From: Psammoneis japonica
Taxonomy: Eukaryota
Reading direction: 5' to 3'
NCBI GenBank assembly: GCA_008632985.1
Contig: QPGO01000054.1
Coordinates: 62,001-126,000 of the forward strand
Length of the DNA: 64,000 nucleotides
A model generated the notes under the pieces. It searched no databases, was not told where the DNA came from, and saw only the letters and a program-made list of their open reading frames with translations. The position numbers and the translations under genes were made by a program. Shown here piece by piece: positions 1 through 64,000 of the stretch (position 1 is the stretch's first letter; each line of letters starts with the position of its first letter).

Positions 1-299
1 GATGTTGTTGAAGTTCCGAATGGATCGTTTGATCCGAAAGTGGTGCTACGTAATCACGACCCGACCGCAACGCAACGCGACGTCAAATTTCTGGATTCTG
101 GATTCTGATGGATCCTCGTTCCTCGTTCGCAAACTGAAAACCGGCACCTTACTACTGCATATCTTCTATCTTCTGCCTTCACAGTCTCTTATTGTACCGT
201 TACAAAAGTTATCTCGAAAGAGTTTCACATTGAAGCGGTTGTTTCACGTCATCGTGATTGCCTTTTCGGTGTGTTTTGTCTTTGAAAGATCTTTCCAGA

Positions 300-2411: not shown

Positions 2412-2727
2412 TCAATTGCTTTTCCGGACGTGAATGAAAAGAACAATGCAATCTGTTAAGTGACCGCTTCTACTTCTAGGTGAGTGGTCACGATTGTCAT
2501 TGATCCCGAGGAACCATACAAATTCGATCTAGCTACCTATCCACGAAGCGATACAGAAGTACAGTAATAGGTGGCAAGTATATGCTTCCGCCATCGCGTG
2601 CACCTTGCATATATGTTTTTTGTCTGATAAAGTACCGAGTTTACTCTTCACTGTTGTGTTTCTATTTCCTTATTATCACTAGGTACTTTATGCGTTTAAA
2701 CTCGCTAACTCTAGAATTTGCGTGCAA

Positions 2728-7099: not shown

Positions 7100-7515
7100 G
7101 AAGACGTCCCCCAGGGTGGAGAGAAAAAGGGTGGGCCGAGGGTAGGGACAGACGGTTGAGAGGAAGAGTTGGCAGGTGACAGCAGGGTGGCTGAGGAGAA
7201 CAGCTTGACACGTAGAAAGATGGGTGGAGAGAGCAAAGCCTAAGTTAAGACTGAGGATTTGAGAGGCCCAGAGCAAGGGGGATGAAGTGTGGTGTGAGGA
7301 GCCGAAGAGGTCTTGAGAGAGTTGTTTCCAGGCCGCGTTGGAGTTGGCAAGGAGATCGGAGGGTGCGCGAAGAGTGAGTTGGTGAAGGCGGAGAAGGATG
7401 CTTGAGAGCTGGAAAAGGAGGAGGGCTTGTCCAGGGTGGTTGGGAGGAAGGGGTGGGATGGGATGGAGGAGGATGTTGTGGGACAAGTCAGCAGGTGGAT
7501 GCGGAAGTTTCATGT
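7100..7515 (-). mobile_element. Possible 3' fragment of a non-LTR retroelement ORF
   Basis: Strong purine/pyrimidine strand skew unlike neighbouring genes; Leu/Ser/Pro-rich frame (LLANSNAAWK...WASQILSLNLGFALSTHL); sits at the edge of a TpA-depleted domain. Family assignment rests on recollection only. Confidence 0.25.
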
Positions 7516-7534
7516 TGACATCCAGAGTGAATGC

Positions 7535-8700
7535 TCATCTGTCCAATGCTTGTGGCACCTCCTTGAGACAACCTTGTGGGAGCAGCTGTTGCTCTGCCTC
7601 TGTGATCAAAACAGTCTCAACTGTGGTGCCATCTTCTTGCTCAGGTGGAGGGGATGACAAGAGCGCATGACTGAGGGTCAAACTGGGATTGGCTGGTGTC
7701 TCCTTGTTGGCAATGCAGACGGCACCTTTCAAGAAAAACAGAAACATGATGAGCGACTGCGAAAGAGGAAGTTGGAGCTTGGGCACAACATGGTGCATGT
7801 GCAAGACTGCTGGTGCTCGTTCACTCTCTTTGATTCCTCCAACTGCTGCTCTGACACCTTGATTTTTGTGTCTCTTTTGGCAAGTTGCACATGGAGTCGT
7901 TTGCATTCTAAATTCCAACTCGAGTTGCTGGATCTTGCGGGCATTGGAATTGTCAGTGCTCTTTTCAGTTGCGGAAGGTTTTGCATTTGCTCCACATCAA
8001 GGTTCAGGGCCTCTGTTGTTTGCAGTGTGCCCTCGACCATCTGGAGGGACACTTTGCTGCTCAAACTCTGTGGCTGCAGCTGTCTTGGCTTTGGTGGGTG
8101 GAAGGTGGGACAAGAGTGCACGGTGGAAACTCTTGTTGCGTTGCTCATGCATCTTGCCTGTGAAGAGTTTCACTGTGATGCTTTTGCCATGGTGTTTTTC
8201 TTGACATGCAATGGCACACTCCATGGCTGCGGCTGCCATGTCCTCCAAACACAAGAATTCGTCCCCGGTCTTGGTGACTCAAAAAGATGAGAGGCAACAG
8301 ATCGAGTCTTTTAACTGCTCGGCAAAGATTCTCCTTTGGGGTCCGGCTCGCATCAACCAATGCATTGACTGCCTCTCCAAGTTGACATTTGATAACATGC
8401 TTGCCATTGTGGCAGCACTCCTTGCGATGTACGCTTTCGGTGACAGCCGCGACGAGATGTGCGATCTCGCGTGTCATTGGTGTGCCTTTTGCTTGCGTGC
8501 AGCTGAAAATGACTCCCACAAACTCATCTGTTGAGCATGATAGCATGGTGCTCGTTCCTGCTGCTATTCTAAAATGCTGATACGTCACCATGATGCTGTT
8601 ACGGTTTGAGCGACTCACGACTTGCTCGGCTCGGCTTCGATGATCGGCTCTCCGACTCTTTGACGCTTTGCTCTCGGCAGGTGGTGCAGGGCAGTGCAAA
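7535..8700 (-). pseudogene. Degenerate gene or TE-gene remnant, TpA-depleted
   Basis: Successive broken frames (8145-8699, 7997-8254, 7729-8148) that are almost Tyr-free and Cys/His-rich; only one TpA seen in 7501-7920 while several CpG remain. Confidence 0.6.
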
Positions 8701-20955: not shown

Positions 20956-21764
20956 TCAAAGAATCCCAGAGAAGCAGTCCATGTTGACATCAATTTTCCC
21001 GCCGGATGCTACAAGAGAGTCTACCAGGGTTTCCTGATCTTCAACCAAAAGAAAGAAGTCATCTCTTTGCTCATCGCGGCTCTTTTTCATTTCTTCGATG
21101 AGGGTTTTGGCATGATTCGGCCTACAAACAAACGGATATGCACCTGGAAAGCCCGGGTCAAAAATGCAACATCCCACCAGCTCGTTCTTATCAGAGCTGC
21201 GTAACTGCAGCGGTATCCGGTTACCAAGCTCCCGAGCCTCCAAAAATACTCCAGGGAACAGTCCTAACGAAGATTCGATTTCTGCTTCTTCCTCTGGCAT
21301 CACGGGTCTACACTCTGTCAGCCCTTCTGATGATGACAGCGTGCTCAAAATGTCCCATGTCAAATGTACTTCTGCTGCACCAAAACAGCGCTTCAGTCCA
21401 AACTTATGATACAATGCTACCGCTGCTTTGTTTTCGGGTACCACATGCAATCTCCAGCGACTGCATTGACGTGCCTTGAATTCCTTGACGACTGCATTCA
21501 GCAAGGCTGTGGCCACACCACGCCGCCTGTAACTCGCATCGACCATGAGATATTTCACTTGACCCTCTTCTGACCCAGTCGCTGCCCACCACCAAGTGTA
21601 TCCAATGGTTTTGTCGTCTAATTCCGCCACGAGGCTTGTAGGCATCATCTCCCTTGTCCAGCGCTCCAACCGTGGGGGCGGATTCGGATCGTCGAGCACG
21701 AGCCAAAGAGCCGCAACGTCAGCGTAGTCCTTCTGAGTTGCACTGCGAATGTGAAGCGCCATCA
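20956..21764 (-). CDS. GNAT family N-acetyltransferase, intronless
   Basis: Acetyl-CoA motif LMVDASYRRRGVATALL and LHVVPENKAAVALYHKFG; second domain FDPGFPGAYPF. Confidence 0.9.
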
Positions 21765-22266
21765 TTAGCGAGGTTATTGTCAAAAACGATAAGGAGAACA
21801 TGCATTGGAGAGGGATTTACGTGTCATTCCTCTCGCTTTTGCGTTGTTGTTATTGTTGTTTGTGTTGTTTCTTCTAAAACAGCAGAACCCGGAAACCATT
21901 CTCACAACATTATTTTGAACTCGCAACAGCGATGGGGTCACAACAATCGCAAATGAAACAAACAGATCTTCAAACGCTGTGGGACGTGGAGAATGCAGCT
22001 GATTAAGATGGGCCAGTGACCCAAAGGCTCATTGGGCCTGTTGGAGCTCAGACATGAGACGCTCAAAGAGCCGCTCAAGCGGTGTGAAGCACCTTGCAAA
22101 ACCTTTGCAAAAAAGGCTGCCCTCACCTCACCTTGGTCCTGGATGTCAGCAGGCATTCAGCATGCACTCAAAAAAATGCAGAGGCTGGCCCTCACATCAG
22201 AGAGGTAAGAAAGAGTGCATGAAATGCAGGCCACTGTTTGGCACTTTTGCACAGTGAGCACACTCT

Positions 22267-22677
22267 CTAATTCATTCTCATGTGGGCGCCCACCACTGCT
22301 GACTGAAATGCATTTCGCTCATTGGCAGTTGATCTTTTTTGTTTGTTGTTTCCACTTTCTTTTGGCGTGCACATGACTGTGCCCCAGGACCAAATTGTTT
22401 TGTTTTTTGGGTCTTGACTCAAGCACAACAACAGCTGTGACTGCCCGGCATCATTTTGTTCAAATGAAGACAGAGTTTCATTTGATTGTTGCCACACAGA
22501 CATTTTTCCATCAAGGAATTTTTCAAAATCATCATTGAATGTTGGCATGCTCGTTTGTCAGCCAGGGAGGGCAATGTCCAGAGCAAAGTAACCAGAAGAA
22601 AGCCACTTGGTCCATTGCATGAAACAACTTGTGTCACAGTTTTTTTGTCCTTGTTGTGAGACTTCCATTTGAATTTC
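22267..22677 (-). pseudogene. 3' part of a degenerate gene interrupted by the copia element (5' part at 28461 to about 29000)
   Basis: Removing the element joins two copies of an approximately 148-bp coding repeat (KFKWKSHNKDKKTVTQVVSCNGPSGF and KFVRKSHRNDKKTIVAQVTAHNGPSEF). Confidence 0.6.
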
Positions 22678-23010
22678 AGTTGAACCAGCAAATCAATGTC
22701 ACCAAACAGAAATCCCACCAGGCTTTCTGTGCTGCTTGTTGCACTTGCCTTGGTTTCTATGTCAGCTGCAGGTTGCCTGTGGTGCTGCAAAGCTTCTAAA
22801 CTGATGGTGCAAATGAGCACGCACCTGTCAACACTGAATGACAAATCTTGTGAACCAAATGATTCAATCCAAAGAGTGAGAACAAAATGAAAAACAAGGG
22901 TTGGAGATCAATGATGGTTCATTCTTGTTGAAGATCATTGTCATTCTTTACAACATCAGGACTCACCCACACATGTCGGAATTCCCTTTTTGACATCACA
23001 AACAGGATGC
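22678..23010 (-). repeat. 3' LTR of the copia element
   Basis: Aligns to 28117-28460 (tgtgctgcttgttgcacttgc, ggttgcctgtggtgc, ctgaatgacaaat, gatcaatgatggt); preceded on the minus strand by the purine-rich gacaggagtg. Confidence 0.85.
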
Positions 23011-26000
23011 ACTCCTGTCATCCTTTTGATTCTTAATTGCCTGTGATGGCTTGCTTAAACTTTCAGAACTTCTTGCCCTGCAACGGCTTTGTCATGAAGT
23101 CTCCAAACATGCCATCAGTTGGACAACACTGTGCTCTCAGGTTGCCCTTCTTTGCTTGATCAGCAATGAAGAAATGCCAAATGTTGAGTGTCCCAGACTG
23201 TTTCCCAGCACTCTTGCACCCATCAGTTGCCAGCAGTGTGGCACTTTTGTTGTCCTGACATGGGACATTCTTGTCAATTGGACAACCCTGGTGTTCCACA
23301 AACAACTTGCTCCTGAACTCCAGCTGGCTCAGCTTCTGTGCTGCTTTGGGCATTGAGCTCCTGTTGTTTGAACATTGTCTGTGCCCCTCCATCACCCATG
23401 GTCACAACTCCCCCTGTGCAGCTTTTAAAGTCCAGGTTCACCGCAAATGATGTGTCCACATGCCACTTGACAACTTGGAGGTCCTTTGCACTTAAAAAGT
23501 GGCAACTTCATTCCTTGTCCAGTTCAAACATTTGACACAACAGACTGGTTTCCCCCAATCCTTGTTGGTGAGTTCACTCACTTGCAATTGTGCTGCAGCA
23601 GCAGTTGGGTGCACATCTGTGTGGCCTCTCTTGGAAACAAACAGTCACTTGGCCACCCCTCTGTGGAAGGGTTGTGCTTTCTTCTTGGTCAGCAGTTGCA
23701 TGCTGCCAGTGTCAAACAGGTTCTCTGCAGCTGGCATCGTGGCAACATCCACACTCTTGATCTTCTCTGGGAACTTGTTGATCATCTTCTTGACACAGCC
23801 ACTCATGTCAACCTTCATTTTGCCCTTTGCACTGAAATCCAGGGTCATCCCCAGGCAGTTGTGCCTCTTTCCTTGAACAACAATGACCTCATTGTGGCTT
23901 CTGCACATCTTGTTGAGCCAGCTCAAGAATTTGTCATTGACCTTTGGGTTCCTGTGGCTTGACAACAGGTTGTCCACATGGAAATGAATCATGTGCTGTT
24001 TTCCATTGACATTTCCATTGGCAATGCAAGGATCACACAGGTTGAACTTAAGCCCAATTTTCTCCAAGTCTTTGCAGAATTGCTTGCACCACAGCAGAGC
24101 CATGACTGACATGCCACATGAGTCCCATGCAGCCCTGATGACTTGGACATGAAGGATGACTCTCTTCCCTTCTCCAGCCAGGACCACACATGGTCCATGT
24201 GGGTTGAAATCAATGCTCACAAGCATGTCAACCAACACTCCTGCAATCTTCATCATGATCTGGTCTTTGCCCTCCTTGGCAGGCTTTGGGATCAAAGTCT
24301 GCACAAATGTGTTGGGTGCATCAGTGTGCTCATTGTGTCATGCCCTTCTGCACCAGCATCAACGTAGGCTGTTGTTGGTGTTCCCTCTGGTTGTGACACC
24401 ATTGGGCTGGCTCAGTTGTCTTTGTCCAGCCATTGTCTTGTTGGTTTCTCATTGTGAACCTTTTGACCTCTTCTGCGACCATCTTGCTTCTCCACAAGGA
24501 ACACAAGAGCTGCCACAGCCCTTTTCCTCTCAGTCAGATTCACATCTTTAACTGACATTGGTGCAAAGCACACACTCTGTCATGGAATTGTCCAATCTCT
24601 TTTTCTGAGGCATCATGCCCTTTCTGGCCAAATGCTTTTGGACCTTTGTGCAGCAAATGCTTCTGGGCAAAGGAAACACCCTTTCCTGATTGGAGCTGGT
24701 CATTGATCTTGCACATGAACTGTGCCATTGTCATTTCCACATTTGAGTTGTGTTCCATGTCCTTTGGGTTTGGACTCATGTTTGTTCACAAATGGTGGCA
24801 GCACTCAAGTTCACTCCATTTACACTCCTCTTCAGTGGTGTTTGCCACTCCTGCAAACCAAACCTTTTTCTTCTTGTTGTTTGCCTGCAGGTGTGCTGGT
24901 GTGCCACAGCATTGCCAGAGGATCTGCCACTTCTGGTCCTCTTGGGTTCATCTTCTGATTTGTCTTCATCTTGGGAATCACCATGTCTTGCAACTCATCA
25001 CTGTCCTTTTTTGCTTCAGTGTCATCATCATCATGACAATTGCTTTTGGCTTTTGTGCTCTCATGCTCCTGTTGATTGGGTCTGGACCTTCCATTTGTGA
25101 GAATCTCACTCACTTCCTCACATTCATTGTCTGGGTTTTCTTCTTCATGATCTTAGTCATCAGAGTTTTGTCCTCATTTTCTTCCTCACTGTTGTTGCTG
25201 TCACTGTCATTGCCCATGTTGTCTGCTCCTGCAGTCCAATCAGCATTGCACATGTTGTCTCCACATTTGCCTGTAGATTTAAAATCTTTGATGCCTTGTT
25301 TGGTGATGCCATCTTCTTGACCACTTGTGCATGTGTGTTGGCAAGGGGTGCAGCAGTGCACTTGCAAGGGCTCAGGAGTTTCTTCATGTGCAGGTTTGTG
25401 GCGCAGCATCTGCTCTTTGGATTGTCAAAGTGTGGTTGCAGATGAACACTGACAGTGCCTCATGTGTCCATTGTGTTCATTGGATCTTTCCAGGCATGAG
25501 ACAGGACAAGAAATTCTCCAAAGGAAAACCAAAAGTGTTTGTTGCAGTTGAGGTTTCTGCATTGTGTGGTGGTGTGTGGGCTGTTTGAGTGTCAGCAATT
25601 TCTTCCTTTTGTAAGTGCATGTCAGTCATGACAGTGTTCTTGATTGCAGCATGCTTGTTGCACATTAACTTGGGTGATGCCTTGTGTGGTGGGTGGTGTG
25701 CAGTGGCTTGAATTTGCTCCTTGATGGTTTTGATGCTCTGCTCAACTTTCAAGCACAGTCCTTGGCATTTGTGCCAAAACATGGCCCTTGGTGTTTGCAG
25801 AAATCAACTCCAGATTCATGCCATCAGCAACTCTTCCCACAGCACCTCCTTTAACTTGGAATTGCACTCAACAAAATTGATCTTGAACAAAGCCATGTTG
25901 TGCTGTCACAAAATTGCATCCAGGGCACAGCACACATTGTCGTGCCACTTGGACTTCAGTTTCATGCTTGATTGGCATTTGACCGTCCAAGCAATCATGC

Positions 26001-28116
26001 GTGTGCTTCAATTTAACTTTGCATGCTTCCATGATGTCGATGCAGAGCATCATGCCCTCTCTTTGCCACTTGCAAATCTCCAGAGGAGTCACAATCATGA
26101 TGTTCCTCTCATGGGAATGATGTGCTTGTTTGATCTTGCCTTTCAAGGCATCCACTGGTTGGCTCCACATGGCCACCATCTTGTCCATGAAGTCTTTGGG
26201 TGCAAAGGACAAGTTCTTCTTCACCTGAGTGGATCACAAAAATTGCTTGAAGTCCCTCACACTTGGAATTTCAGCCTCATGATGCAGTCTGAGCATGTGC
26301 TCAGCATTTGCCACCTCCCTCTTGCAGCAGCCTGTGGTGGCACTTTGATCCATGGTCAGAACTGTGGTTCCTGATGCACTCCTGTGCTCCTTCTTCTTCT
26401 TCTTCTTCTTCTTCTGTTTCAACAGCATGCTTGCGTGAGACTCTTTCTCTTGAAACTCGTTGACACAGTCAAAAAAACTTCTCATTGGGTCTGAAAGCAC
26501 ACAGCCTGATGTCAACGATCTTGACTTGCCAGTCTTCTCATCCAGCAGGCAGAACTCATCTGAAGCTTGGTTGTTGCATGTGATGCAGCGCTTTTTTCTT
26601 CATGTCCTTCAAACTCAGGACATTTGCTGTTGCATTCTCTGACCCAAGCTTTGTGTCTCCCCATGATGGAATGGCACAGTCTTTGTCCAGTGCATCCACT
26701 CCTGCATTTGTGGGCAGATGATTGTTGTTCTTTGCCGGTTGCACAGTGTGCACAAACCTCCAGCTTGCTGCCATGCTGAGGGTCAATCATTGTTGAGGAT
26801 GATCTCATCCATCTTGATGTCCATGTTGGCTTGTGCCATGCTTGTTTCTGGTTGCTCACTTGTGAGTTGCAGCTTGTGCCATGCAGCACATCTGTTTCTG
26901 GCAGAACAGCTTGGTCTGTTGGATGTTGTGGTGTTGATGCTTGCACTGTCACCATCCACGAGTCTGTGCATGACTGTGTCCCCTGATGTCCAGCTTCTGT
27001 CCTGTGTCCTGAAACCAATTGTTCTGCAATGTGTCACCTTTGTGCAAGCAGCTTGGGGACTTGTGGCATGGCTCTGGTCTTTGCTGTTGCTGTTGTCATT
27101 GTTGCCATCCTCCTTCTTTTTGCCCTTTTTGTTGCTGTTTCTTGTCCTGATGCAGCTGTCCTTTGGATGGCTCAGCAATGCATTCGCAGCTGTCTCCAAG
27201 GTCTTTGGGCAGGAGGCATCCTTGTCTGGACTGCAGTCCCTCACAAAGCTCTTCTTGAGGCCCTTGCAACAATGACTGTTGCTGTGCTCTGAGAACAGGT
27301 GTGTCATCCACTTCTTGCATGCCTCATCCTTTCGCTGTCTCTGAGTGTCAGGATTTGCTTCTTGTTGTTGTTTTGTGTTGGCAATGAACCCATCAAACAT
27401 TTTCTTTCCCTGGCCTTTGCTCACAGCATCCTGCCAGTTCTTGAACCTTGACAAACAGTCATCACCTGTTCTTTTGTTCTCTTGCTGCCTCACATCCAGG
27501 AGGTTCTTCAGTGACTTGGTCAGCATGTGGAATGGATGACAACCTCTCATCGAGTCAAATGTCAGGGTCTGAATTGGCCTCAGCAGCTCAATCAGATTGT
27601 CCCTCAGTGCAGGACAGGCTGGATCATGTTGCACTTGTTGTCTCATTTGCCTGGAACAACAGTCATCCCATGTTGTGAAGAATGCAACAGTCTTGTTCTC
27701 TTTGAACTGCACAATCTTCTTGCGGCAATCATGCAATTCCTCCATGGTGCACCTCCACTCTGGCTCCTTGTTTTTGCACTCACACTGTTTTGGCAAGCTT
27801 TGGCAATTGGCGCCTCCTGGACCTGGTGCTGTCTTCTGGGACATCTTCAGAGTGGGTTTCTAGCAGTTGAAGTCCTTGCATTTTGTGTCCTCCAGTGATC
27901 TTGCCAGATGGACTCCTTGCTCATTTTCCTTCTGCATGTGTCAAATGATCCATTCAACATTGAAGGATGGAACTTCAGCTCAGGCTGAGAGCACTTCTTG
28001 TTGTTGGGACTGTCTGACCTGTGGCTCTTGTCATCTCTGTCTTGGCTGCCAACTTGGCCAGATTGCTTGCCACTCCCTCTGCCACTCATGGCACAGGAGA
28101 TCTCAGGGGAAGTGAA

Positions 28117-28460
28117 TGTTAAACCAGCAAGTCGGTGTTGCCAAAAGGGAATCCTTGCTGGGCTTCATGTGCTGCTTGTTGCACTTGCTGCCTTGGCTTC
28201 TGCATTGGCTTTGGGTTGCCTGTGGTGCCAATGTAAAACCTCTAAACTGACAACACAACAGGCACCTGTTGATGCTGAATGACAAATTGCGCAAACCAAC
28301 AAATGGCTCACTTGAAAGAGCAAAAACAAAACAAAAAACAAAGGCAGGGGGATCAATGATGGTGCACTCTTGTCAAAGATCATCATCATTCTTTGCTGTG
28401 CCAGGATTCAAAATTTCTTTTCTTCAACACTTCCAGGTCCCACATCTGGGTGTCCCAACA
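28117..28460 (-). repeat. 5' LTR of the copia element
   Basis: Canonical TGTT...AACA termini (tgttaaacc...cccaaca), immediately upstream of gag start MSGRGSG at 28089. Confidence 0.88.
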
Positions 28461-29049
28461 ATTTCACCCTGTCAACTTTTTCTCTCCTCCCTTGGCAAAG
28501 TCCAATGCAGTGTCAGTGGGCAGCCACAAATTCACTTGGTCCATTGTGTGCTGTGACTTGTGCCACAATTGTTTTTTTGTCATTTCTGTGAGACTTTCTC
28601 ACAAATTTCACCTCATCAATTTCTGCTTTCTTTGTTTTGACTGATGTCGACAGGGTGAGATTTGTGTGCACACCCCACAGGTGAGGAGAGGGCTGGAGGT
28701 GGCCATGGGGAATTCTCCTGAGCACCTTGTGGCTCCCTTTCTCAGTTCAAGAATGGCAGCAGATGGAGAGGAAAAAGTGTCAGACCCCTTTTCCAGCAAT
28801 TTTGAAGACTTTGCTGGTGATGAAAAAGAACAAGAGGCCATCTCTTCTCACTGATCACAGCACAGTGCAGGGAGAATGGAGCTGCTGCTGGCAATGACTC
28901 TCTTTGCAAACAATGAGCAGAAGGTGGCTGTGATGTCACCAGAAAAAATTGCACTTGTGTCACTCTCAAATGCAGTCACAAACAACTGAAATGTTTTTGC
29001 AACTTGGGGGGGGTGCAATTTTGAATCCACACAACTTTTTTCAGGTCAA

Positions 29050-32000
29050 GAGAAAACACAAAACAAGGAGGCCAACTTGCAACAATGCAAAGCAGCACCA
29101 CAGCATGTCACACACAACACAAAAGTTGTGAGAAAACACAGCAATTGCAGCTCAGAGACAGACCAGTCTCTGAGTGAGCAGACGCCGATGATGACAAGGT
29201 TGGCAGAGACATTGTCAAGGGTGAGAGACCACATCAAAGAAAAAGAGCCTCTCTGAGCATCACACTCACATTTGATGCAAAGCAATTTGAGGAAACAGGC
29301 ATGCTGTGTGAAGACAAAATTTGCTGCAAGTGTCATTGAGCAAGATGGAAAACCAACTCCCACATCTTGCTGTTTCTCATGATGCAGGGGTGCAAGAAGA
29401 CAAAGAAGCAAGAACTCTCTGCTCTGAGGCCAACAGATGTTGCAAGCAAGCTTGAGAGCATCATCAACAAGGGTTTCATGGAAACAGAAGTTGTCATGAA
29501 GAAGGGAAAGTGTGCAAGACACTCAAGCACTTTGCAGCAAGCAACTGGAACCCAGCAGAGGAAGACACAGGCAGAAGATGATGCAAAATGCCAAGGAAGA
29601 GCAAGGGATGGTTGATGAGAGCCAACAAGTTCTTCTGCAAGCTGTTCATGGAAATCAAACAAGACATTGCTTCAAGTGAATGACTGCTCCTCTGCTGACA
29701 GGAAGATTTGCACAAAAGAGCTGCAGCCAACTGTTGAAAGCAAACAGGAAAAGAGCTTGATGACTTGGGTGGTGAAGGAGACCACATGACAAGCTGCACC
29801 AAGATCTGTGAACTGGAGCCAGTGGTGGCAGTTTTGCAGACAAAAACCCACAAGCAGAATTTTTTTCATTGTTCAACATGAGATTCCAAGGCAACGCTCC
29901 ACTCCAGAAACTGCACTTTAGACAGCAACCATCAAGTTGAACATTTTGGGGGTGCAAACTTGGTGAGTTTTGCTGCACACTGACTGGGTTGACAAGATCT
30001 TGATTTGAAATCATGCACTCACACTCACACACCTTTTCTTGGACTGCAGTCCACTTTTCTTGGACTGCAGTCCACTCATCAGTCAGGGGGGGGGGGAGAT
30101 TCCCAAATTTGCCCCCCCCCGATGCCATGCAGTGGCTTCAGCCAATGCTCAGCAGACAACACAAACACTCAAAAAGTGCACTGGTCAGCAACACAACAAC
30201 TGCTCTTTGGGCATGCACAAGCATTTTGCAAATGCAAAAAGCAAAGTTCTTGCTGGCTGTTGTGGCAAATGTCCCCATTGGAAGCACGGGCTGCTTCTTC
30301 AACAGGCAGCCACCATTTTACATCAAGCTTGCTTCCAAAGACATGTGCAGTCAAATGCATGTGTGGAGAAAAGCCACCAAGAACCCAAGCCTTCAAATTT
30401 GCAAGGCAATCATGTGTGGATGATGTTCAATGACTGAACTCCAGCAGATTTGGCTTGCAACAAGAGCAAAACAATCAACTTGCGCACCTTTGGCAAAGAG
30501 CTGAAGTGGCCACATCAACAAAGATGATGATGTGTTCTTTTTCAAAAACATCAATGGAGATTTTTGTGAGCTCCATGCAACAACAACAAGCAAAGTGATT
30601 CAGAAACCCACATTGTTCCTGTGGTGTTTGCCATTTCAAAATTTTTGAGAATGGCGGGGGGAAACCAGCAGCGGTGTTTCGCTCTCACATTTGTGTGGCT
30701 TTTGCAAACCCCAATGCAGTGCATCAGTTGATTTGGCACAGTGCAAGCTCCAAACTCCAAGATTTCTTTTCCTCCAACCTTCATGCACCTCACTGCATTG
30801 TTGCATCATGTGTCACCCCCCTCACACACCCACAATGGCAGAAAAAACCACAAAGCCCACCATCACTGCAGTTGCATCACACAATGTCACAGTTTGGGAT
30901 GATTGGGCTCAATCAATTCCATGGCTGCACATTTGTGAAATTAACAGAGAGGGCTTTGACCACCAAAAGCAAATGCTGAGTCAGAATTTGACCACAGCAG
31001 CACACAAAAAGCAGAAAAAGAGCCCAGAAGGAATTGGAAGCAGCACATGAAGCACATCCTTTGCAAGACACAAGCAACAAAAAATCAACACAGCAGTGGC
31101 TGTTTGAGACTTCTGAATTGTACAAAATGGCAGCCTTTGGTGCATGCATTGGCAAAGCATGTTTTGCAGGGCACAATGCAATTGACAAGCTTTTTTGTGG
31201 TGGCTTTTTTGGTGGACATTGTGATGCAAGTTCTGCACAAAGCTGCCCAAGGCATGCGTGGTGCACAGCTTGTCATGGAAATGGCTTTTTTTTTAAGAAA
31301 TGGCAAGAAGAATCAGAGTGCATGTGAGCCATCCTCTTTTGCATTGCAAACACATTGGCACACCTTTCCTCTTGTTCAAAATGCTGTCTGTCTCATTTGG
31401 CGCCTTTTTTGGAATGGCACAAATGTGGATTGTGTGTTGCAATGGATCCTGGCACTCCAGCTGAGATTTGTTTAGCCTGAATGGCATCCATGGCCGGGGA
31501 TGACAATGTCTTGGCTGGCACTTTGTCCATCCTTGCCCTGTGCTGGTGTGCACATTGCTGAGTTTTGTCCTTCGCTGAAGACATTTGGAGATGTGCAACG
31601 TCTTTCTTTGGTTGCCAACTGTTGTGCAGTTTAATTCTAGCCTCACTCTTCACCCACTGCTGCTGTTCATCTCCAATCACAGTCAGCATCTTCATGCAAG
31701 AAATGGACAAGCAGTGGTGCAGTGGTTGGCAAGCTGCAGAGAGATTTGATCCATGAACTGCTTTGTGTCCGATTCCAGCACCACTTTGCCCCATGCACAA
31801 GAGAGTGAGGGGATTGGTTTGTCCCATGAAATTGCTGCAGCAGCTGGCAGGGAAGTCATCAGTGAATCCACAATGTTCACATCAAACAGTTGCTGTCATG
31901 CAAGCAACATCACCTCCTGTTCCATCACTGGGACAGGTGAAATTCAATGAGTTGATTGTGCAAAATCAGAGTTGCAAGTCATTTGAGCCACTCACAAATG

Positions 32001-33950
32001 CCAATGATTTTCACAGTTTGGAAGAAAATGAGTTGGCAAAAATGCATGCAAGCATGGCTGGCAGAATTGCAAAACTCTCACAAGCCTTGAAAGAGCCCTT
32101 CATGAAGCAGAAGCAGCCCAATGAGGAGTTGCAACAAGAATTTGAAGCCAGGCTCAACTGCTTTGAGAAACTTCATCTCAAGCAACATCAACAAAATGGC
32201 ACTGAGTCACAACAAGAGTTTGGTGCAAGGAGAAACTTTTTCAAGCACCACAACAATCAACAGCTGGACAGAGAGCAAGAGACAGCATTTTTTTACAAGC
32301 CCTTTGGTTGCCATGCAAGAACACAACAAAATTGCACCAACAAAAATGACCAATCCTGGGGAAGCATGCAAAGCACAAGCAATTCCAAACAGTCGCCATG
32401 ATTTGATGCGTCCAAGGTGCCAACACTGCATCAGATGCCAAGGTGCAATGCCTGCTCTTTTGTGAAAAGTGCAGATGAGACCATTGACCCCAGCCTGCGT
32501 GGGTGCACAACTGCAGAACTGTCCATGGGCAATCAAATCAGAAGACTGTTGTCACCAAAGCAGATGACCTTTTGCAGGTTTTTGGAGGCATTGGTTTTGT
32601 CTGAGGGGCGTGCCTTTTTAGGTGACATCTTAATGGCATTTAGACCAAACAGGTTGCTTGTGGGAAGTGACATGAAAGCATCCATTCCCAGCCTTTCAAA
32701 CAAGTGTGATGCAAAAGCCACAGAAGACTCCTTCAAAGCAGATGAAATGTCAGACTCACAGCACACATGTGCAACTGCAGCTTTTGAAATGATGGTTTTG
32801 AAGACAAGAACTTGACTCAGGAACAATTGCAGTGTGTCTCAAAAAAATTGTGCATGGCCATTGAATCAGGACAAAGCCAATGACGAGGCTGCTGCCCAGG
32901 GCCCCATTGGAAGGTTGTTGCTGGGGCTGACACAATGGCGACACAGGAAGCTGCCATGAGAAAAATGGTTTCCAGCAAAGAGCTCTCTCACTCTGATGAA
33001 ATGCTTGCTTTGGAGTTGCATCAAAAAGTTGTTGCCAGAAAGCACACAAGACCATCAATCAGAAGCAAGCCTTGACCTCAAACATCCCACAAGGGAAAGC
33101 ATCAAGCAATGCAAGGAAAAGCTTTGACACACTGGTTCATTTGCTGCTGAGGCTGCAAGCATGACCCAACAAGAGAGAAAGCCATCTTGAGTTGCTGTTG
33201 ACAATGTGGTGTCCAGCGCAGACTTTGATGTAGACCAGTCTGATGTGCACATCAAGTTGTTGTCAGGGGAGGACATCATGCCCAAAAAAAGGAGTTGTCA
33301 TCACTGGAAATTCAGCACATTGTTGCAGACAGAGGCTTGGAGAAGTCAGAAGAAGTGACGCTTTGGGAAATGACCAAGAGACAAGATCTTGCTCATGAAG
33401 AGACCAAGAGAAAATCAAGGCAGCTGCTGCTTTGCCAGATTTTTGTCTTGAACAATGACTTGCAGCTCAACAGCAAGAAAGCTTTTGTCTGATTGGTGTC
33501 CAGGAGTCAGGATCTTGCTTTGGAAGAGGAGGCTCTTGCCAAGTCTACAAGCCAACAAATTTCATTGAGCAAATGCTTGGCACAAAAAAGAAGCTGCAAT
33601 GCAGAAGGTGGTGTCAGGGGATGCTGTTTCTGATGAGGAAGTCCAGCTGCCTTTTTGGGCATGCCAGAAAATGTCCGAATCCAGATGAAATGTGCTTGGC
33701 AAGTCTCATGTGACAAGAGTGAGAGGTGACAGACATCAAGACAGGAGAGGTTGCTGTGATGATGCTTCAGAAAGTGCAGGCAGGAAAATCAATGAAAGCA
33801 AGAAGGGAGGCCATGCAGAAAATGGTGTGTGGCAAAGAGCTCTCTCAACAGAAGACACTTTAGACAGCTGGTGCAATGCAAGCCACAAACTCTCTCCAAC
33901 ACAAATGCATCCACAAACAAAATGAAGGTTGGGACAGAGTCTGGCTTCAC
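29050..33950 (+). pseudogene. Degenerate coding remnants of unidentified TE(s) or gene(s)
   Basis: Chain of broken plus-strand frames with protein-like composition once some Cys/His are read as Tyr (31034-31327, 31763-32401, 32417-32815). No family motif confidently recognised. Confidence 0.45.
30033..30074. repeat. Exact 21-bp tandem duplication, each copy containing the 14-bp palindrome TGGACTGCAGTCCA
   Basis: cttttcttggactgcagtcca at 30033-30053 and 30054-30074. Confidence 0.95.
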
Positions 33951-34183
33951 CAGTTGCTGTTCTGACAAGGACAAGAGCAAAGAAGAAGACTTCTTTGACC
34001 CCTTTTGAAAACTCAATGTCACTTAAGATCAGGAGAGCAGACTTGGACTTCCAAACTCCTCTGCAGAGTGAGAGGATCCCATGATGGTGTGCCAGCCAAC
34101 CTGACAACCGCAAACTGAGGTCATTGGTGGTGTCTGGTGGACCCCATGTGACAGTTTGAGAACTGTGGCTGGGCATTGCAAGG

Positions 34184-34467
34184 CCCAGTTTCTGCCCACC
34201 ACCAAGGGCATCCAATGGTTTTGTCATCTGGCTCCACCACAAGGTTTGTGGGCATGTCATCATTTCCCTTGTCTGGTGGTGCTCCAGCCATGCTGGGGGC
34301 GGGGTCGGACGGTCGAGGAGCACGAGAGCCAAAGCAAGCTGCAACATCAGTGCAGCCCTTCTGAGTTGCACTGCAAACATGATGAAGTTGGAGAGTGGTT
34401 CACGTGTTGTTGTGATGCTTTTTGACCTCACTGCTGCTCCCTCGTCCGGCAGCCAAACCCGGAAACC
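34184..34467 (-). pseudogene. Truncated, mutated duplicate of the GNAT 5' CDS and upstream region (source 21574-21897)
   Basis: Shared blocks ctgcccaccaccaag, atccaatggttttgtc, ccttctgagttgcactgc, ttggagag, aacccggaaacc in the same order and orientation. Confidence 0.92.
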
Positions 34468-34999
34468 TTGCAAGGTGTGGTTTTGTCGCAGACAATGCTT
34501 TGCCATTTGCCATTGCCCATTGCCAATGGCAGACTCTAGAGCAGGCCCAACGCTGCATCTCGCTCGCGATTGCTCATGATCGCGATGACACAGCACCGCT
34601 TTACCTTGCACTCTAGAGAGTGGACTCTAGAAGCAGCGGGAGCATCCATTGAGGGCTTGCAGTGCACTGATGCAAAGCAACCCATCGCCCTACGAAACCA
34701 TGAGTTCAGCATCATCTACGCTTGTCCGGGGGATGATCCATCGTTGCCATGAAGTCAAGCCTTCCAAAGTGTGAGAAGTGTTTTCGCAAGGACGGCGTGA
34801 CATCTGGGCATCCCAACCCATGTTTCCCGGATTTTTCTTTTCTCCCATGCCCCATGCGAGACTTTGTTCTTGATCCGACCCTTTGCTGTCTCTGCCACTC
34901 TTGCTCCCCTCTTGGGAGAACGAAGCGATGCCATTGCTGCCCGTGTGTTTCGTGTCATGCCAGCACCAGCACGGCTTGTGCACAACAAGAAGGTTGACA

Positions 35000-36090
35000 A
35001 AAAATGACAACAACAAAGACGGAGTGGGAAGCACGGCGAGGAACTCAATCATGCATGTTGTGCCTTCCTCAAAGACTCCAAAGTTCACGCCTCCGTCTGA
35101 CATGCAAAGTGCTTTTGTGGGTGCCATTGCCTTTACGTGCAGCACCATTTCAGATGTTGTGTCGGCTGCCATGATGCCTGAGCAAATGAAAAAAAAGGTT
35201 CGAAGCCATGGCGCGACTCAAAGCTCACCCATTTGGATGCATCTGGTGTGGGAGATGAGCTTGAAGAGGTGAGCCAAGATGTTGCATGGACAACAGAAGC
35301 TGACTCATTCCCGCTTTTTCAATTTTCAGGCCCTCATGAAACCCATGTTGTGAGGGCGTTTGCTTGACAATGTGAAGATCTTGAATGACATCCAGGAGAA
35401 GAATGACGCTGATCATTGCGAGAAGGCTCAGTCTCGCAATGTCAGCAACATTGATGAAGAAGCCAAAGAAGGAAATCGATGCATGAGGTTCGCTGCAGCA
35501 GGCAAGGCGCGCACGCACACAAGTCTTCAATTGTGCTTTTCCAACTTTTGTTTGACTCACTCAACCATCTCCAAAACATCGACATTCCCAGCTTGCACAA
35601 CCGAAATGATTCGGAGCGCCATTGACAAAGAGGTCCATCCAGAAGAATTGCAAGATCAAAAGACGGCGATTGCTCGTCATGCCATGACATCTCCTGAGGA
35701 CGTGAAACTCTTGTGCGCAAAGGACGACAGCAATGACTGCCATGTTCTGCACCACTTTGTAGCTGTGGACACAGAAAACGAGTCAATCGTGTGGTCATTG
35801 CGAGGTGCACCATCAATGTCTGGATCCATCGTGGACATTCAGGGCATGGAATGTGAGTGGCAGGTGTTTCTCATGCTGCGTTCTCACTGCAGGCACAGAA
35901 CGAACCCGGTCATGACAGGCGAAACCTGCAAACAAGGAGTCTCAATGGCCCATGCGCACAGCACGTTCAGTGATCACTTTTACTTTACACCGAGATTGCA
36001 GACTTTTTCGCATCCCGTTGGTTTTCTCAACCGCTCAGGCAACTGCATGAGGCATGCCTGAGCATGGGGCATGGCCAAGATCCCGCCCCC
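35000..36090 (+). pseudogene. Class 3 lipase (DAG-lipase-like) pseudogene
   Basis: CMRFAAAG (cf. YMRFA.AAYG), HFVAVDTENESIVWSLRGAPSMSGSIVD (cf. IVLSIRGT.S..D), GMAKI; no catalytic GHSLG found; stops and frameshifts. Ends approximate. Confidence 0.65.
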
Positions 36091-37787
36091 AGGTGTTCCG
36101 CACCGGCACATTATGACAATCGCGAACAAAACCAGTTTTCTCATCGCCAAGCTGCGTTTCTTCCTGTTGTGAATCGAAGTGGACCAGGCAAAGGCAAGCC
36201 GGAGCACAGCCGCAATTCACTCATCTCTCGTGCAGAGCAATGAGTCCAGATGCCCCGTCGAAACTGGGTGCTGCAGCACCACAGCCGCAGCCGAGAAAGT
36301 TCGACAGCAGGCACTTGTGGAATCATCTTGAAGCTCTTGATCAATGACATCGTTGTGATTTTTCCGGCGCTCGACATGTTCACAGGTTGCGCACCTTTCG
36401 ACAACATCTTTAATTCTCTCCGCTTCATGAAAGACTGCTGAAGACAAGACGTCTACTCGCAAAAGCAACAGTGCGTCGAAAACAGCAGCGACGGCATCAG
36501 AGTGCCGTGCGCGAGAGTTACGACCGTCAACATGGTCCATTGACGTACGTACGGAACAAATGGCATGCAAATAAAGATTGCTGTGCTGCACTTTTAGTCT
36601 TTCCACTTCTCTGTTGTAAAGGTTCAAAGTGTGTTTCGAATGTTTGAAACACGCCAATGTCAAAAGTTGATGGAAATTGGTCGCGTGGGATTACATTGCC
36701 TCAAGAGCACCATCATTAGATGGCGCTCAAGCTTTTTCCTATTTTTGGGGTGGAAAACCACCCCAAAAAAAAGAAAAAGGGGGGACGTGCTGCGGAGACA
36801 GCAAGAGAAACTTGCGAGTCAACCGCGTGCTAAATCAACACTCCCTGCGAGTGAAGACTTGCCGCACCACATCGCTGATGCAACGGAACCCCAAACCCCG
36901 CGTTCCGTCAATGGAACGATCTGCTCAGTGAGCTTTTGCTGCTTCGCAGACGAACGCTGCTGTCTGTTTCAACAGCCGTGACCTGACGGGTCAAGCGAAC
37001 AGGCAACTTCCTGCGGTCAAAGACACAGGAGTGACATGGGCTCCAGGCCGGAGACACACATTTGATTTGCCCTGACCTCCGGACTTAACTGGCAACACCT
37101 GCGCTGCCGATTTCAACAGCACACTTGTGCTGAAGCAACTTTGACAAAAAAAGAGAGACAAACCGCCAGCATTGGAATCAAGCTCAAGGTGAGCTGAGGA
37201 AAAAGAAGGACTCAATCACATCGTGCGGGTTGACAAATTGAAACTGAAGCAGTTCCCTCTTTTTGTCGCTCCTCCGACATCGTCAGTTCCCATCTCGAAT
37301 GATGAAGCGAAAGAGAAGTGCTTGATCCTTCTCCACGGACGGAATGCCAGCCTGAAACAGACGGTGTCGACGCTCCACAGGTGGGGTTCTTTACACTTCT
37401 CTTCACCCATGGCACCATCATCGTTCCCGCACCAATCACTGATGATTCCCTTGCGGCGTTTGTGCGGAGATGAACAGATTTTTGAAAACGGGCGTCGTTT
37501 GAAAATGGAGGGAAATGATGTGGCTGGAAAACCAACGGGTGTGTTTTACTGTCACATTTTGTGTAATTTGTGCGAACCCCTACGACGTCAGCCGAACTTC
37601 AAACAGCGCGAGCTCCGAACTCCAGATTTCCTTGTCTCTCCACTCCACACACACCGCACCGCATATTCCTACTACCGTACTACCCATGGTGGACGGCGTT
37701 CGTCATCATGTCAATGTCGTGCTGAACTTCACCGGTATCATAACATGCTAAAAGCACCCTTAATCATAGGCTGAAGTAGGGATAAGA

Positions 37788-38625
37788 ATGTTTCATCTCA
37801 TGAGATCGTATCGGTGTGGCGGATCAAAAGGTCGGCGATACCGATGGATGACAGGCAGATCGGCATCGAGTCGTCGGCCCAATCCGTTGTTTGTCAATGC
37901 GAGCAACGCCCCGGATGACTTTGATCCATCCGGAGCTGTGGTTTACGACTCCTTTGTATCACATGAAGAAGGAGAATCTCTAGTGTCTGATATAATGGCT
38001 CGAATGCGTCGGTAAGCTACGTGAGCTTCATCCAGAAAAGTGCCTTTTTACTTCCGACACATACACACTCACAACCTACTTCTGTTGATGCAACGCCACT
38101 AGCCGTCGGTACGAAAAGGGACACTGGGATGCAGTCATTACGGACTACAAAGAAGTGGAGCTCTTGGATGAATCCGTACTTGGCGACGCTTCCAGAACTG
38201 CAATGGATCGTGTTCGAGAGCAATTGTTGACCCATCATTTGCCCACTTCCAGAGAAGAAATTACGTTTCTGCCGTGTCACGCGATTGATTTGAAAAAGGA
38301 TGGCGAGCTCAAGGCTCATGTCGACTCTATCAAATTCTCTGGAGATGTCGTTTCCGGAATTAGTCTGCTATCTTCCAGTATTATGAGACTCAGACCAGAA
38401 ACAACGCAACAACGAGGCAATGATTCAGAGGAGCAGTCGGAAGGATGGGTCGACTTGCATCTTCCACCCTTGTCACTCTATGTTTTATCAGGATCGACTC
38501 GATATCATTACACACATGAGCTACTTCCCTCTGGCTCTGTCTTTGAAGCGCCCGACGGAACAACTGCGACGGTTATTCGTGATCAACGACTCAGTGTGAT
38601 TTTTCGTGATGCCAAGGATTCGTAA
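37788..38625 (+). CDS. ALKBH7: AlkB homolog 7-like 2OG-Fe(II) dioxygenase; intron about 38012-38102
   Basis: RRYEKGHWDAVITDYKEVEL; HAIDLKKDGELKAHVDSIKFSG; SLLSSSIMRL; RYHYTHELL; RLSVIFRD. Confidence 0.88.
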
Positions 38626-39518
38626 ATGGTATGTGGTGTGCTAGTAGCTCTCATTACGTATTGCTTGAACGTGGTTCCTTCTCTTTGGATGGCTCTTGAT
38701 TAATGCATATATGGAATTACCGTCTGACGTACGAGTTCGCGCTTGTATTGAAAGGACGACGACACTGCGGCTTGAATGAAGCTTCACAAAAGAGAAACTC
38801 CTGTCTGTTCATTATACTCTATTGATCTATCCAGATTCCATTGCACTCACTCCCATCTTGTCTTGTTCTTCTTGCAATCAAGATCCGGCTTTGCGACCTT
38901 TGTCGTTGAGCGGGCAGGCTTTTTCGTGCTCTCCACGTCACAGTCACACCGGTATTCATTTCAAAATGTCACCGGGGAAGATCAGGCTGGAGCTCTGTTT
39001 TGTGATTCGTAGACACTTTTTGTCACTTGTCTGTAACGGATGGTGACACAATCGTTGCTCGAGACGCAAATGTATGGTCATTCATGACATTCTTCTCACA
39101 TTGGTTAGAGTATTTCGCTGCTTTCGAGTGCCGGCAAGCACGAACTATGGTAATATTGCAAGCCTCAAACGAATCGTCTGTTTGTTTGAAAGTATCGTAG
39201 GTGTTGTGAATGAAAATAAATAGTAAACTGCTCTAGAGTACCGGTACCGGTAATAGAGTACTTAGTATCGATCATATCATTGGTAACAGCCTCTGCTCTG
39301 CCAGACTCTCGTCATCTGCCCATTTGGGCCATCGCGCGGACCACTCATTTTTTTCTGCACGGGGACCAATAAGTTCACGTTCTCAGGTCAATTTTTTTTT
39401 CAAGAGATAACGAAGCTGTTGCAAGCTCAAGAGCAATAGGCGGAACAAAAGAAGTGCATTTCTCTAAGGTAGTTTATCAGAGAAGAATTATCTTTCTTTA
39501 AAATTTCGCAAACAAAAA

Positions 39519-63289: not shown

Positions 63290-64000
63290 TGTCTTTCGCT
63301 TTGCTATTCGTGTCGCTCGCTTTGACATGCTGTATGAAACTGAAAGTGGCATCAAGAATCGGTGTGGCGTGAGACAAAAGGAGGGATTTTGCTCTCTTAA
63401 CTTTGAAAAGTGGCGCAGCAGCTTTGTAGAGTAGGTCACAGACACAATAAGGAAGTGAGAAGGCATCAGCATGCACGGTGCTGAATGTCTGGTTCTCGCA
63501 ATTGCTGTGTTTCTGTCAGATCTCGATGTGACCAGCTGCAACGTCATGTCTCTCTGACTTGATTGCTCAACCTTGAGCTTCACAGAATGCCAACGCACCC
63601 CTTCTTGAATCACACCACCAGCCTGGGAATCCTCTCTCTCCCAACTGTGCGCAAGTGGCTGTGGGGACACACCCTCAGCACAAAAGCACAATTTTTGAAG
63701 GTTGTGGCTCTGGCGACACTTTCCTGCAGTCACACCACTGATGGTGTGAGGCTGCTTCTGTTGGTTTTGTGTGCACCACAAATTTTGAAAAGCACTCCTC
63801 TGCAGCAGCAGCAGCACTGGCATCTCTTTATCCCAGATCCTTTCCCTTCTGCACTTCTGAGAAACTCTTTGTCTGATTGCAGCCAGATGGAGGAACTCAA
63901 CAGATTGAACTCAGAGGTGACCACTGGGCTTGGAATTTGAAATGAATCACAGCCAAGACACAGGCCCAATCATCAGAGAATGACACAATTGAGTGCTCTT
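63290..64000. other. Start of another TpA/CpG-depleted degenerate domain (runs off the window)
   Basis: After about 63460 TpA is almost absent and CpG rare; translations are Cys/His-rich and Tyr-poor. Confidence 0.8.

Follow-up and report, generated by a model that had tools for sequence, protein, structure and literature searches.

A stretch of 64,000 nucleotides from Psammoneis japonica (assembly GCA_008632985.1, contig QPGO01000054.1, positions 62,001 to 126,000; hereafter, the window) contains a block in which the dinucleotide TpA (TA) has been largely lost while CpG (CG) has been kept. The block adjoins a longer core, marked by a remnant of a Ty1/Copia retrotransposon, in which both dinucleotides are nearly gone. 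We think it probable that two distinguishable transition processes rewrote silent DNA of this genome. The first would convert TpA into TpG or CpA (A:T to G:C) on both strands, in the flank order (A)TA/TA(T) >> (G)TA/TA(C) > (C)TA/TA(G) >> (T)TA/TA(A), with TTAA essentially immune. It would extend over the whole 15.6-kb stretch (approximately 21912 to 37547) between the promoters of two active genes, and over two islands elsewhere in the window. The second would be the CpG-to-TpG/CpA decay of methylated DNA, complete only in the Copia-containing core (22.1 to 34.3 kb). The TA-only block, which an earlier reading of the sequence alone (the original prediction) had described as a halo around the core, would have received about half of the core's dose of the first process and about 1/20 of its dose of the second. 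We keep the word halo as a label.

Loss of TA with retention of CG

Expected counts were taken from the background density of the ordinary DNA of the window (38.6 TA and 56.8 CG per kb), where observed/expected ratios were approximately 0.56 for TA and 0.96 for CG. The halo (34281-37570) contained 27 TA versus 126.9 expected (ratio, 0.21; Poisson p = 5.5e-27) and 166 CG versus 187.0 expected (ratio, 0.89; p = 0.065). The same pattern held in all five sub-blocks, with TA at 0.09 to 0.41 and CG at 0.75 to 1.22 of background. The TA count never fell below 101 in 3616 background windows of 3290 bp or below 5 in 4477 background windows of 420 bp. Three TA-free gaps in the halo, of 417, 513, and 626 bp, contained 19, 11, and 25 CG, respectively; the 99th percentile of background TA gaps was 130 bp. 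The G+C content of the halo was 0.508.

The counts given in the original prediction were accurate. It had reported 1 TA and about 18 CG in 35521-35940, and the recount gave exactly 1 TA (at 35760) and 18 CG. It had placed the return of CpG at about 34290 and the end of TpA scarcity at about 37570, interrupted by a small patch at about 36450-36620. The final CG of the core lies at 34109 and the next at 34300, TA stays rare up to 37547-37581, and seven TA at 36454-36617 form the sole patch.

In the core (22100-34280), observed/expected ratios were 0.09 for CG, 0.05 for TA, 1.88 for CA, and 1.77 for TG; counted over 22100-34290, 41 TA remained of 466 expected and 56 CG of 687. Two islands were also depleted. 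The second mutated island (7246-8312) retained 2 of 41.2 expected TA (0.05) and 24 of 60.6 CG (0.40), and the third (63448-64000) retained 2 of 21.3 TA (0.09) and 7 of 31.4 CG (0.22). A left margin block (21912-22205) had 1 TA of 11.3 expected and 8 CG of 16.7. General neutral decay of TA was ruled out by the ordinary DNA outside long open reading frames (ORFs), where TA was 0.70 and CG was 1.04 of expectation.

Unequal doses at the two dinucleotides

The extent of loss was expressed as a dose, -ln(survival). For TA, we used only the contexts of intermediate sensitivity (GTAC, CTAC, and CTAG), avoiding both saturation and immunity. In these contexts, TA survival was 7 of approximately 132 in the core and 9 of approximately 35.6 in the halo (doses of 2.94 and 1.38; ratio, 0.47). 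CG survival was 56 of approximately 693 and 166 of approximately 187, respectively (doses of 2.51 and 0.12; ratio, 0.05). A fixed ratio of TA to CG rates predicts about 57 CG in the halo, where 166 are present. With approximately 47% of the core's dose for TA and approximately 5% for CG, the halo excludes a single proportional process. The claim that the two losses are separable was therefore upheld, and a locus outside this genome (L042; see below) repeats the pattern.

The values of r_CG/r_TA were approximately 1.0 in the core, 0.6 and 0.3 in the two islands, and 0.08 in the halo, a series that resembles a time series. They might reflect a single clock with two speeds, the "earlier or faster" option of the original prediction: TA conversion would be much faster or burst-like, CG decay would be slow, and the halo, islands, and core would be young, middle-aged, and old silenced DNA. 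In all four depleted blocks, TA loss equaled or exceeded CG loss in completeness. A lipase-like copy in the halo is separated from a relative that is expressed by differences at 91 of approximately 1009 aligned bases, a divergence that does not require great age for the halo. We nevertheless regard this option as somewhat unlikely. A duplicated GNAT gene fragment located where the halo meets the core differs from its counterpart at 17 of 150 non-CG, non-TA sites and is thus not young, and CG content changes in steps (between 34109 and 34300 in the window, and at 1602 in L042) with no gradient. The two-speed clock also still requires a TA-specific process, which makes it a variant of the two-process explanation and not a true alternative.

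Boundaries of the TA-poor domain

Boundaries were located by maximum-likelihood change points with support intervals; the window contains five. To the right of the core, CG changed at 34300 (support, 34261-34300) and TA changed at 37547 (37494-37664). To the left, TA changed at 21912 (21876-22035) and CG changed at 22081 (22081-22121), in agreement with the remark that this edge keeps some CpG. At these two boundaries the offset was resolved, with TA loss reaching 169 bp (left) and 3247 bp (right) farther out. At the other three, the support intervals overlapped: TA loss lay 116 bp farther out at the right edge of the 7246-8312 island and 94 bp farther out at the left edge of the 63448-64000 island, and the left edge of the former leaned the opposite way by 93 bp. 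For the edge at 63.3-63.7 kb, also said to keep some CpG, the order of the change points (TA at 63449, CG at 63543) agreed with the claim, which is weaker here, as the CG support (63319-63749) overlaps that of TA. The general proposal that TpA loss spreads further is likewise weakly supported, with two of five boundaries resolved in its favor, three unresolved, and one of these three leaning against it.

On the left, the TA-poor domain ends upstream of the GNAT start codon, at a distance of approximately 110 bp, and on the right it ends approximately 100 bp upstream of the mapped start (37672) of the next expressed, spliced gene. The domain thus takes up everything that lies between these two active genes. 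As originally worded, the idea that a halo spread out of the transposon into neighboring DNA was not supported. The halo is decayed multicopy DNA (the start of a GNAT gene, a lipase class-3 pseudogene, and a high-depth repeat), not naive flank, and the TA-only block of L042 is the transposon's own pol. The 3.2-kb halo is a size outlier, for which separate targeting of repeat DNA is a better reading than spreading.

Flank rule and strand symmetry

Surviving TA were pooled across the four depleted blocks (17.1 kb) and compared with the background density in the absence of depletion (Table 1). Survival depended strongly on the flanking bases (chi-square versus uniform context survival, 147.8; p = 2.5e-27): ATAT and ATAC together had 0 survivors of approximately 150 expected, and TTAA was spared. 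CG loss showed weak context dependence only.

Table 1. Survival of TA by tetranucleotide context in the four depleted blocks
Context	Observed	Expected	Survival
TTAA	18	21.9	0.82
TTAG	13	58.7	0.22
TTAC	18	84.3	0.21
CTAG	5	36.8	0.14 (0.136)
GTAG	8	95.5	0.08
GTAC	3	52.8	0.06
TTAT	3	83.2	0.04
CTAT	2	74.7	0.03
ATAT	0	47.6	0
GTAT/ATAC	0	102.2	0

A multiplicative per-strand model was fitted on the palindromic contexts of the core. For the mixed contexts, it predicted survival of 0.165 for TTAC (observed, 0.133), 0.275 for TTAG (0.215), and 0.045 for GTAG (0.059). Because rates from palindromic contexts predict mixed contexts well, the TA process seems, as far as the sequence tells, to read the strands one by one. 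The rule can be written in two forms: as A>G in T-A-N, with N ranked T >> C > G >> A, or as T>C in N-T-A, with N ranked A >> G > C >> T. Gains of CA and TG were almost symmetric, with (TG-CA)/(TG+CA) within +/-0.2 per kb. This symmetry indicates that both strands were struck and speaks against editing of RNA or cDNA.

These data bear on the possibility, contrary to the inference in the original prediction, that TA loss is a by-product of methylation, that is, collateral damage from T:G mismatch repair after deamination of 5-methylcytosine (5mC), through G:C-biased repair or error-prone patch resynthesis with T>C at TpA. Analogues exist in very-short-patch (Vsr) repair, which erases CTAG in Escherichia coli, and in TDG-type glycosylases, which act on G:T after T. 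Vsr converts CTAG into CA/TG words as a side effect of G:C-biased T:G repair countering 5mC deamination, an effect restricted to one tetranucleotide linked to the Dcm site. In immunoglobulin somatic hypermutation, noncanonical mismatch repair and polymerase eta mutate A:T pairs at WA motifs, producing A>G next to deaminated cytosines and spreading, with a strand bias, over hundreds of bases from the lesion. The TA-poor domain contains the CG-poor domain wherever the two were resolved (two of the five window boundaries and the right edge of L042), every TA-poor block of the window shows some CG loss, and the halo could be methylated yet faithfully repaired, keeping CG while losing TA. We still judge a collateral origin quite unlikely. 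Even 3 kb away from the core, TA loss (37141-37570; 3 of 16.6 expected) is no weaker than beside it. CTAG is among the less affected contexts, with ATAT and ATAC the most affected. A WA-motif process of the polymerase eta type would target AA as well as TA, but AA was undepleted (observed/expected, 1.26 in the core and 1.15 in background), and the changes here are symmetric and near saturating. Erasure of approximately 100% with TTAA immune resembles site recognition and not an error hotspot. Finally, most CpG-decayed Copia loci elsewhere retain TA (see below), so that such a mechanism would be lineage specific at best.

Direction of change

Comparisons of a GNAT duplicate, the Copia reverse transcriptase, and the lipase pseudogene with their relatives showed, on the evidence of these alignments, that the losses are real mutations from TA to CA or TG and from CG to CA or TG. 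The duplicated GNAT piece spans approximately 300 bp, and the functional left copy was taken as the ancestral state. All 4 of its TA were converted in the right copy, 2 to CA and 2 to TG. Of its 13 CG, 3 were kept, 8 became TG or CA, 1 became TT, and 1 became GG. The copies differed at 17 of 150 other aligned sites, and no aligned TA or CG was confined to the right copy.

The Copia assignment of the core was made through relatives of a minus-strand ORF at 23648-24337, which had 2910 relatives at E <= 1e-3. Among the seven relatives scanned, the RVT_2 domain was above the Pfam cutoff in four, just below it in two, and absent from one, which identifies an RVT_2-type reverse transcriptase and hence a Ty1/Copia retrotransposon, as judged from these relatives. 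Pfam searches of the core ORFs themselves (55 ORFs at E <= 0.01 and 15 ORFs at E <= 10) gave nothing usable. Compared with 46 homologues, the pol remnant kept none of 11 conserved tyrosines (7 are now Cys, 3 His, and 1 Trp) and 4 of 16 conserved arginines, all in AGR codons; the 12 lost arginines became Gln (6), His (2), and Cys, Trp, Lys, and Gly (1 each). Other conserved residues were mostly intact, with 12 of 14 Leu, 6 of 6 Lys, and 7 of 8 Phe kept in a separate alignment with 12 homologues.

The lipase pseudogene of the halo was aligned with five homologues (33 to 48% identity), one of which carries PF01764. Neither of its two conserved tyrosines was kept (both codons are now TGC), and 5 of 10 conserved arginines were kept, 4 of them as CGN; two CGN codons were converted (to TGA and CAT). 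The loss of Tyr with CGN Arg largely kept is the codon-level image of the decoupling of TA from CG.

Recurrence in metagenomic Copia loci

Metagenome contigs were scanned by reverse transcriptase alignment, which yielded 80 Copia loci and 1212 windows of 500 bp. Most of the loci had ordinary TA (0.45 to 0.9). In the 38 windows with CG below 0.2, the median for TA was 0.615; elsewhere, CpG thus commonly decays with TA kept. Only 26 windows had TA below 0.2, and 22 of these came from two loci, L042 and L043, with single windows from L018, L046, L031, and L060. L042 and L043 represent a single locus, assembled from two metagenome samples (99.9% mutual identity).

L042 is TA poor across 1-3200, with the same flank pattern, at 0.81 for TTAA, 0.66 for CTAG, and zero for ATAT, ATAC, and GTAC. 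CG is distributed unevenly over this span, with 71 in the TA-poor part at 1-1601 and 13 in 1602-2990, separated by a sharp step at 1602. At the right edge, CG returns near 2992 and TA near 3104-3200. The pol ORF, including the reverse transcriptase (151-804), lies within the TA-only half, so what would be called a halo there is transposon body. L042 shares with the window only 94 nucleotides of reverse transcriptase similarity, and the nearest clusters of its flanking CorA-like protein are oomycete- and perkinsid-like. The recurrence of both the signature and the decoupling in this unrelated contig argues against an artifact of a single assembly.

An origin by RNA or cDNA editing during retrotransposition (ADAR-like A-to-I or APOBEC-like), or by assembly or base-calling errors at modified bases, appears extremely improbable to us. 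In favor of such an origin, a retrotransposon is present in the core, and both editing enzymes and miscalls at modified bases would yield A>G and C>T. ADAR-type hyperediting would produce A>G clusters on one strand of retrocopies; here, both strands were struck about equally, and neither the halo pseudogene, with its two introns, nor the GNAT fragment, with its upstream DNA, is a retrocopy. Contigs of sequencing run X1 matched the window exactly in the core (32462-32831) and the halo (34378-34652), the same signature was present in two separate metagenome assemblies, and the protein alignments revealed a directed loss of Tyr and Arg codons.

Two short metagenome contigs had windows of low TA, with TA of 0.06 and CG of 0.61 in L018 (251-750) and TA of 0.14 and CG of 0.30 in L046 (751-1250). 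Both may be further carriers of the TA process. In four other loci (L068, L049, L041, and L028), CpG was at 0.12 to 0.35 of expectation and TpA was ordinary (0.60 to 0.76); these are cases of plain methylation decay without the TA process.

Relation to known mutational systems

Transposon-directed hypermutation is known as C>T chemistry, in the form of repeat-induced point mutation (RIP), 5mC decay, and APOBEC activity. The pattern described here resembles RIP of filamentous fungi in its dense, near-saturating transitions, its dinucleotide preference, its location in repeat and transposon DNA, its action on both strands, and its production of pseudogenes, and RIP, too, sometimes leaks a short distance into neighboring DNA. 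The chemistry differs. RIP changes C:G to T:A, mostly CpA to TpA, and so creates TpA and lowers G+C content, whereas here TpA is destroyed (0.05 in the core, with CA and TG at 1.77 to 1.88) and the G+C content of the halo is raised. RIP is premeiotic, depends on RID or DIM-2, and acts on duplicated DNA, mutating both copies. Here, a repeat pair is present in the core, and single positions of the halo have three to seven variant contigs, but the left GNAT copy is untouched and the right one lost all four TA.

Decay of CpG by 5mC deamination accounts for the changes from CG to TG or CA and the excess of CA and TG that mark the core and many of the 80 metagenomic Copia loci. It leaves TpA and other dinucleotides untouched, however. 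In the core TA was lost as well, and in the halo it was lost with CG kept, so that deamination cannot explain 27 of 127 TA alongside 166 of 187 CG.

A literature search, with subscription papers and supplements outside its scope, found no paper on TpA-to-CpA/TpG hypermutation of repeats in diatoms or other algae, and the underlying phenomenon appears to be undescribed. In excerpts of one report, diatom DNMT4 is related to fungal RID and of unknown function (PMC9998398). Excerpts of another mention CpG methylation of a Copia element, without such a mutation pattern (PMC2806351).

Proposed mechanism and significance

The specificity and completeness of the changes at TpA suggest an enzyme-directed attack on silenced or repeated DNA, and the changes at CpG presumably depend on 5mC. 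A DNA adenine deaminase that recognizes T-A-B could be responsible, or the route could be oxidation of thymine at V-T-A to a base that pairs with G. Deaminases of the TadA/ADAT type naturally target adenine in U-A-C, which resembles a T-A-Y preference, and JBP/TET-type thymine oxidases give 5-formyluracil, which pairs with G. A bolder version, which we offer tentatively and would not ourselves assume, is a dedicated genome defense mutator that edits DNA at TpA here and in at least one other protist lineage (that of L042), clearing silenced transposons, pseudogenes, and repeats of Tyr codons and TAA/TAG stops; it would be the chemical mirror image of fungal RIP (A:T to G:C) and independent of cytosine methylation.

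Several observations weigh against the two-process account or narrow its reach. It was built on one 64-kb window and one clear outside locus. The expected counts lean on the genic background of the window as a proxy for the ancestral sequence of each block. X1 is possibly source data of the window assembly, in which case its support is not independent. The left GNAT copy is unmutated despite repeating the right copy, a poor fit to a simple repeat-triggered mechanism. Every TA-poor block in the window has at least some CG loss, and TA loss might thus depend on methylation. The two forms of the flank rule could not be told apart: halo tetranucleotide products conflict, with the change from ATAA to ATGA suiting one form and that from GTAA to GCAA suiting the other, and single cases among the fates of the Tyr codons (7 Cys, 3 His, and 1 Trp) contradict each of them. 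The data are ambiguous as to the target base and as to whether the neighbor read is at -1/+1 or at -2/+2.

If the two-process account is correct, near-saturating, site-specific change from A:T to G:C in nuclear DNA would constitute a second genome defense chemistry and would point to a natural editor of adenine or thymine in DNA. It would explain why the dead elements here have an ordinary G+C content (0.46 to 0.48) and are invisible to RIP indices, and why Pfam, faced with sequences that have lost every Tyr and every CGN Arg codon, does not recognize them. The tetranucleotide rule (ATAT and ATAC erased, TTAA spared) offers a ready genome-wide test, and the block with TA lost and CpG kept offers a handle for separating the process from cytosine methylation.

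Contents of the core, the halo, and the flanking DNA

The coordinates of the features of the window are given in Table 2. TAA and TAG are almost missing from 22100-37570, and long open frames occur in all six frames (58 core ORFs of >=90 amino acids); because of this scarcity, an ORF finder or gene caller would overpredict genes there.

Table 2. Features of the window, in order of position
Feature	Position	Strand	Basis
Second mutated island; TA nearly gone, CG partly lost	7246..8312		Counts
GNAT acetyltransferase gene, intact, TA and CG normal; left bound of the mutated domain	20956..21801	-	Pfam Acetyltransf_1, E = 8.4e-19
Unmutated left duplicate; GNAT 5' end and upstream region	21574..21900	+	Direct repeats D2 and D4, spacing ~12.6 kb; alignments
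Left margin, TA poor and holding CG	21912..22081 (~170 bp)		Change points
Core; CG and TA both lost, CA/TG excess	22100..34290		Dinucleotide counts
Repeat, ~370 bp, paired with 28118-28610	22599..22965		~72-73% identity
Ty1/Copia-type pol remnant (reverse transcriptase and RNase H region)	22934..24794	-	tblastn, 7 long relatives
Partner repeat of 22599-22965	28118..28610		~72-73% identity
Mutated right copy of the GNAT 5' fragment, astride the core/halo boundary	34184..34475	+	Alignment
TA-only block (halo)	34291..37547		TA/CG positions, counts, change points
Lipase class-3 family pseudogene; CGA>TGA stop, frame shift, two retained introns (~35267-35327, ~35502-35598)	35030..35860	+	tblastn
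High-depth repeat in the halo	36607..37140		Summed X1 contig depth; TA 6/20.6 and CG 29/30.4 expected
2OG-Fe(II) oxygenase-like gene (AlkB-like), spliced, expressed; right bound	37672..38625	+	2OG-FeII_Oxy_2, E = 2e-6, 28.6 bits (below the 31.2 cutoff)
Third mutated island, truncated by the window end	63448..64000		Counts

In the core, the paired repeats are probably the long terminal repeats of the Copia element. CA and TG were exchanged between them in 17 of 41 adjacent double differences, so the two copies were mutated independently, as expected if one ancestral CG or TA was resolved separately in each. Two tandem Copia copies were ruled out, as the core halves share just approximately 370 to 490 bp. 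The second half of the core (28610-34184; 5.6 kb) had no Pfam match and no similarity to seven Copia polyproteins. Rfam gave no matches in 21-39 kb, and ARAGORN predicted no tRNA genes in the entire window.

In the halo, the summed depth of X1 contigs over the high-depth repeat was 4568 to 5678, versus approximately 120 to 300 in the flanks, although summed depth is not copy number. This repeat includes a 48-nucleotide near-palindrome (36732-36779), a T/G run followed by a C/A run. Apart from the GNAT fragment and this palindrome, no further copies of the halo were found inside the window. Single positions of the halo were overlain by three to seven distinct X1 contigs with a different letter (e.g., seven at 34772 and seven at 36566), which indicates that several versions of the halo at >=85% identity exist. 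Run X2 resembles a transcript assembly in having GT..AG joints, and the splice joints of the two lipase introns are visible in its contigs; the expressed lipase relative mentioned above is a spliced X2 contig of 1902 nucleotides. Among the 11 printed X2 differences in 34690-35856, 3 restore TA, 2 restore CG, 2 form a single CA/TG swap, and 4 are of other kinds. Pfam found no family at E <= 0.01 in 14 ORFs within 34121-37774. Three further ORFs brought the number scanned to 17; in one of them (35974-36243), a HAMP hit reached an E value of 0.024 only and was taken as chance.

To the right of the domain, Pfam gave no match for the ORF at 37770-38015, and the ORF at 38089-38625 is part of the 2OG-Fe(II) oxygenase-like gene. 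One X2 contig spans 37672-38010 and 38102-38493 with a single difference and a GT..AG joint. The position of the 2OG-Fe(II) oxygenase gene beside the domain is probably a coincidence. Its family includes enzymes of DNA base repair and demethylation.

Many stretches of 31000-39000 are also covered by a second X1 contig of similar depth and approximately 88 to 92% identity, with 57 differences over 38449-38919 and 35 differences plus gaps over 37707-38174. This suggests strongly diverged haplotypes or homeologous subgenomes. Outside the flagged region, the genes of the window encode proteins with HSF-type DNA-binding and helicase-associated (HA) domains, plant-type leucine-rich repeats, and ankyrin repeats. 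The protein clusters closest to the HSF protein come mostly from Bacillariophyta, and we accordingly treat the window as nuclear DNA of a diatom or near relative. Within a leucine-rich repeat protein of 710 amino acids, tandem 72-nucleotide units at 44214-44357 encode 24-residue repeats of the plant type.

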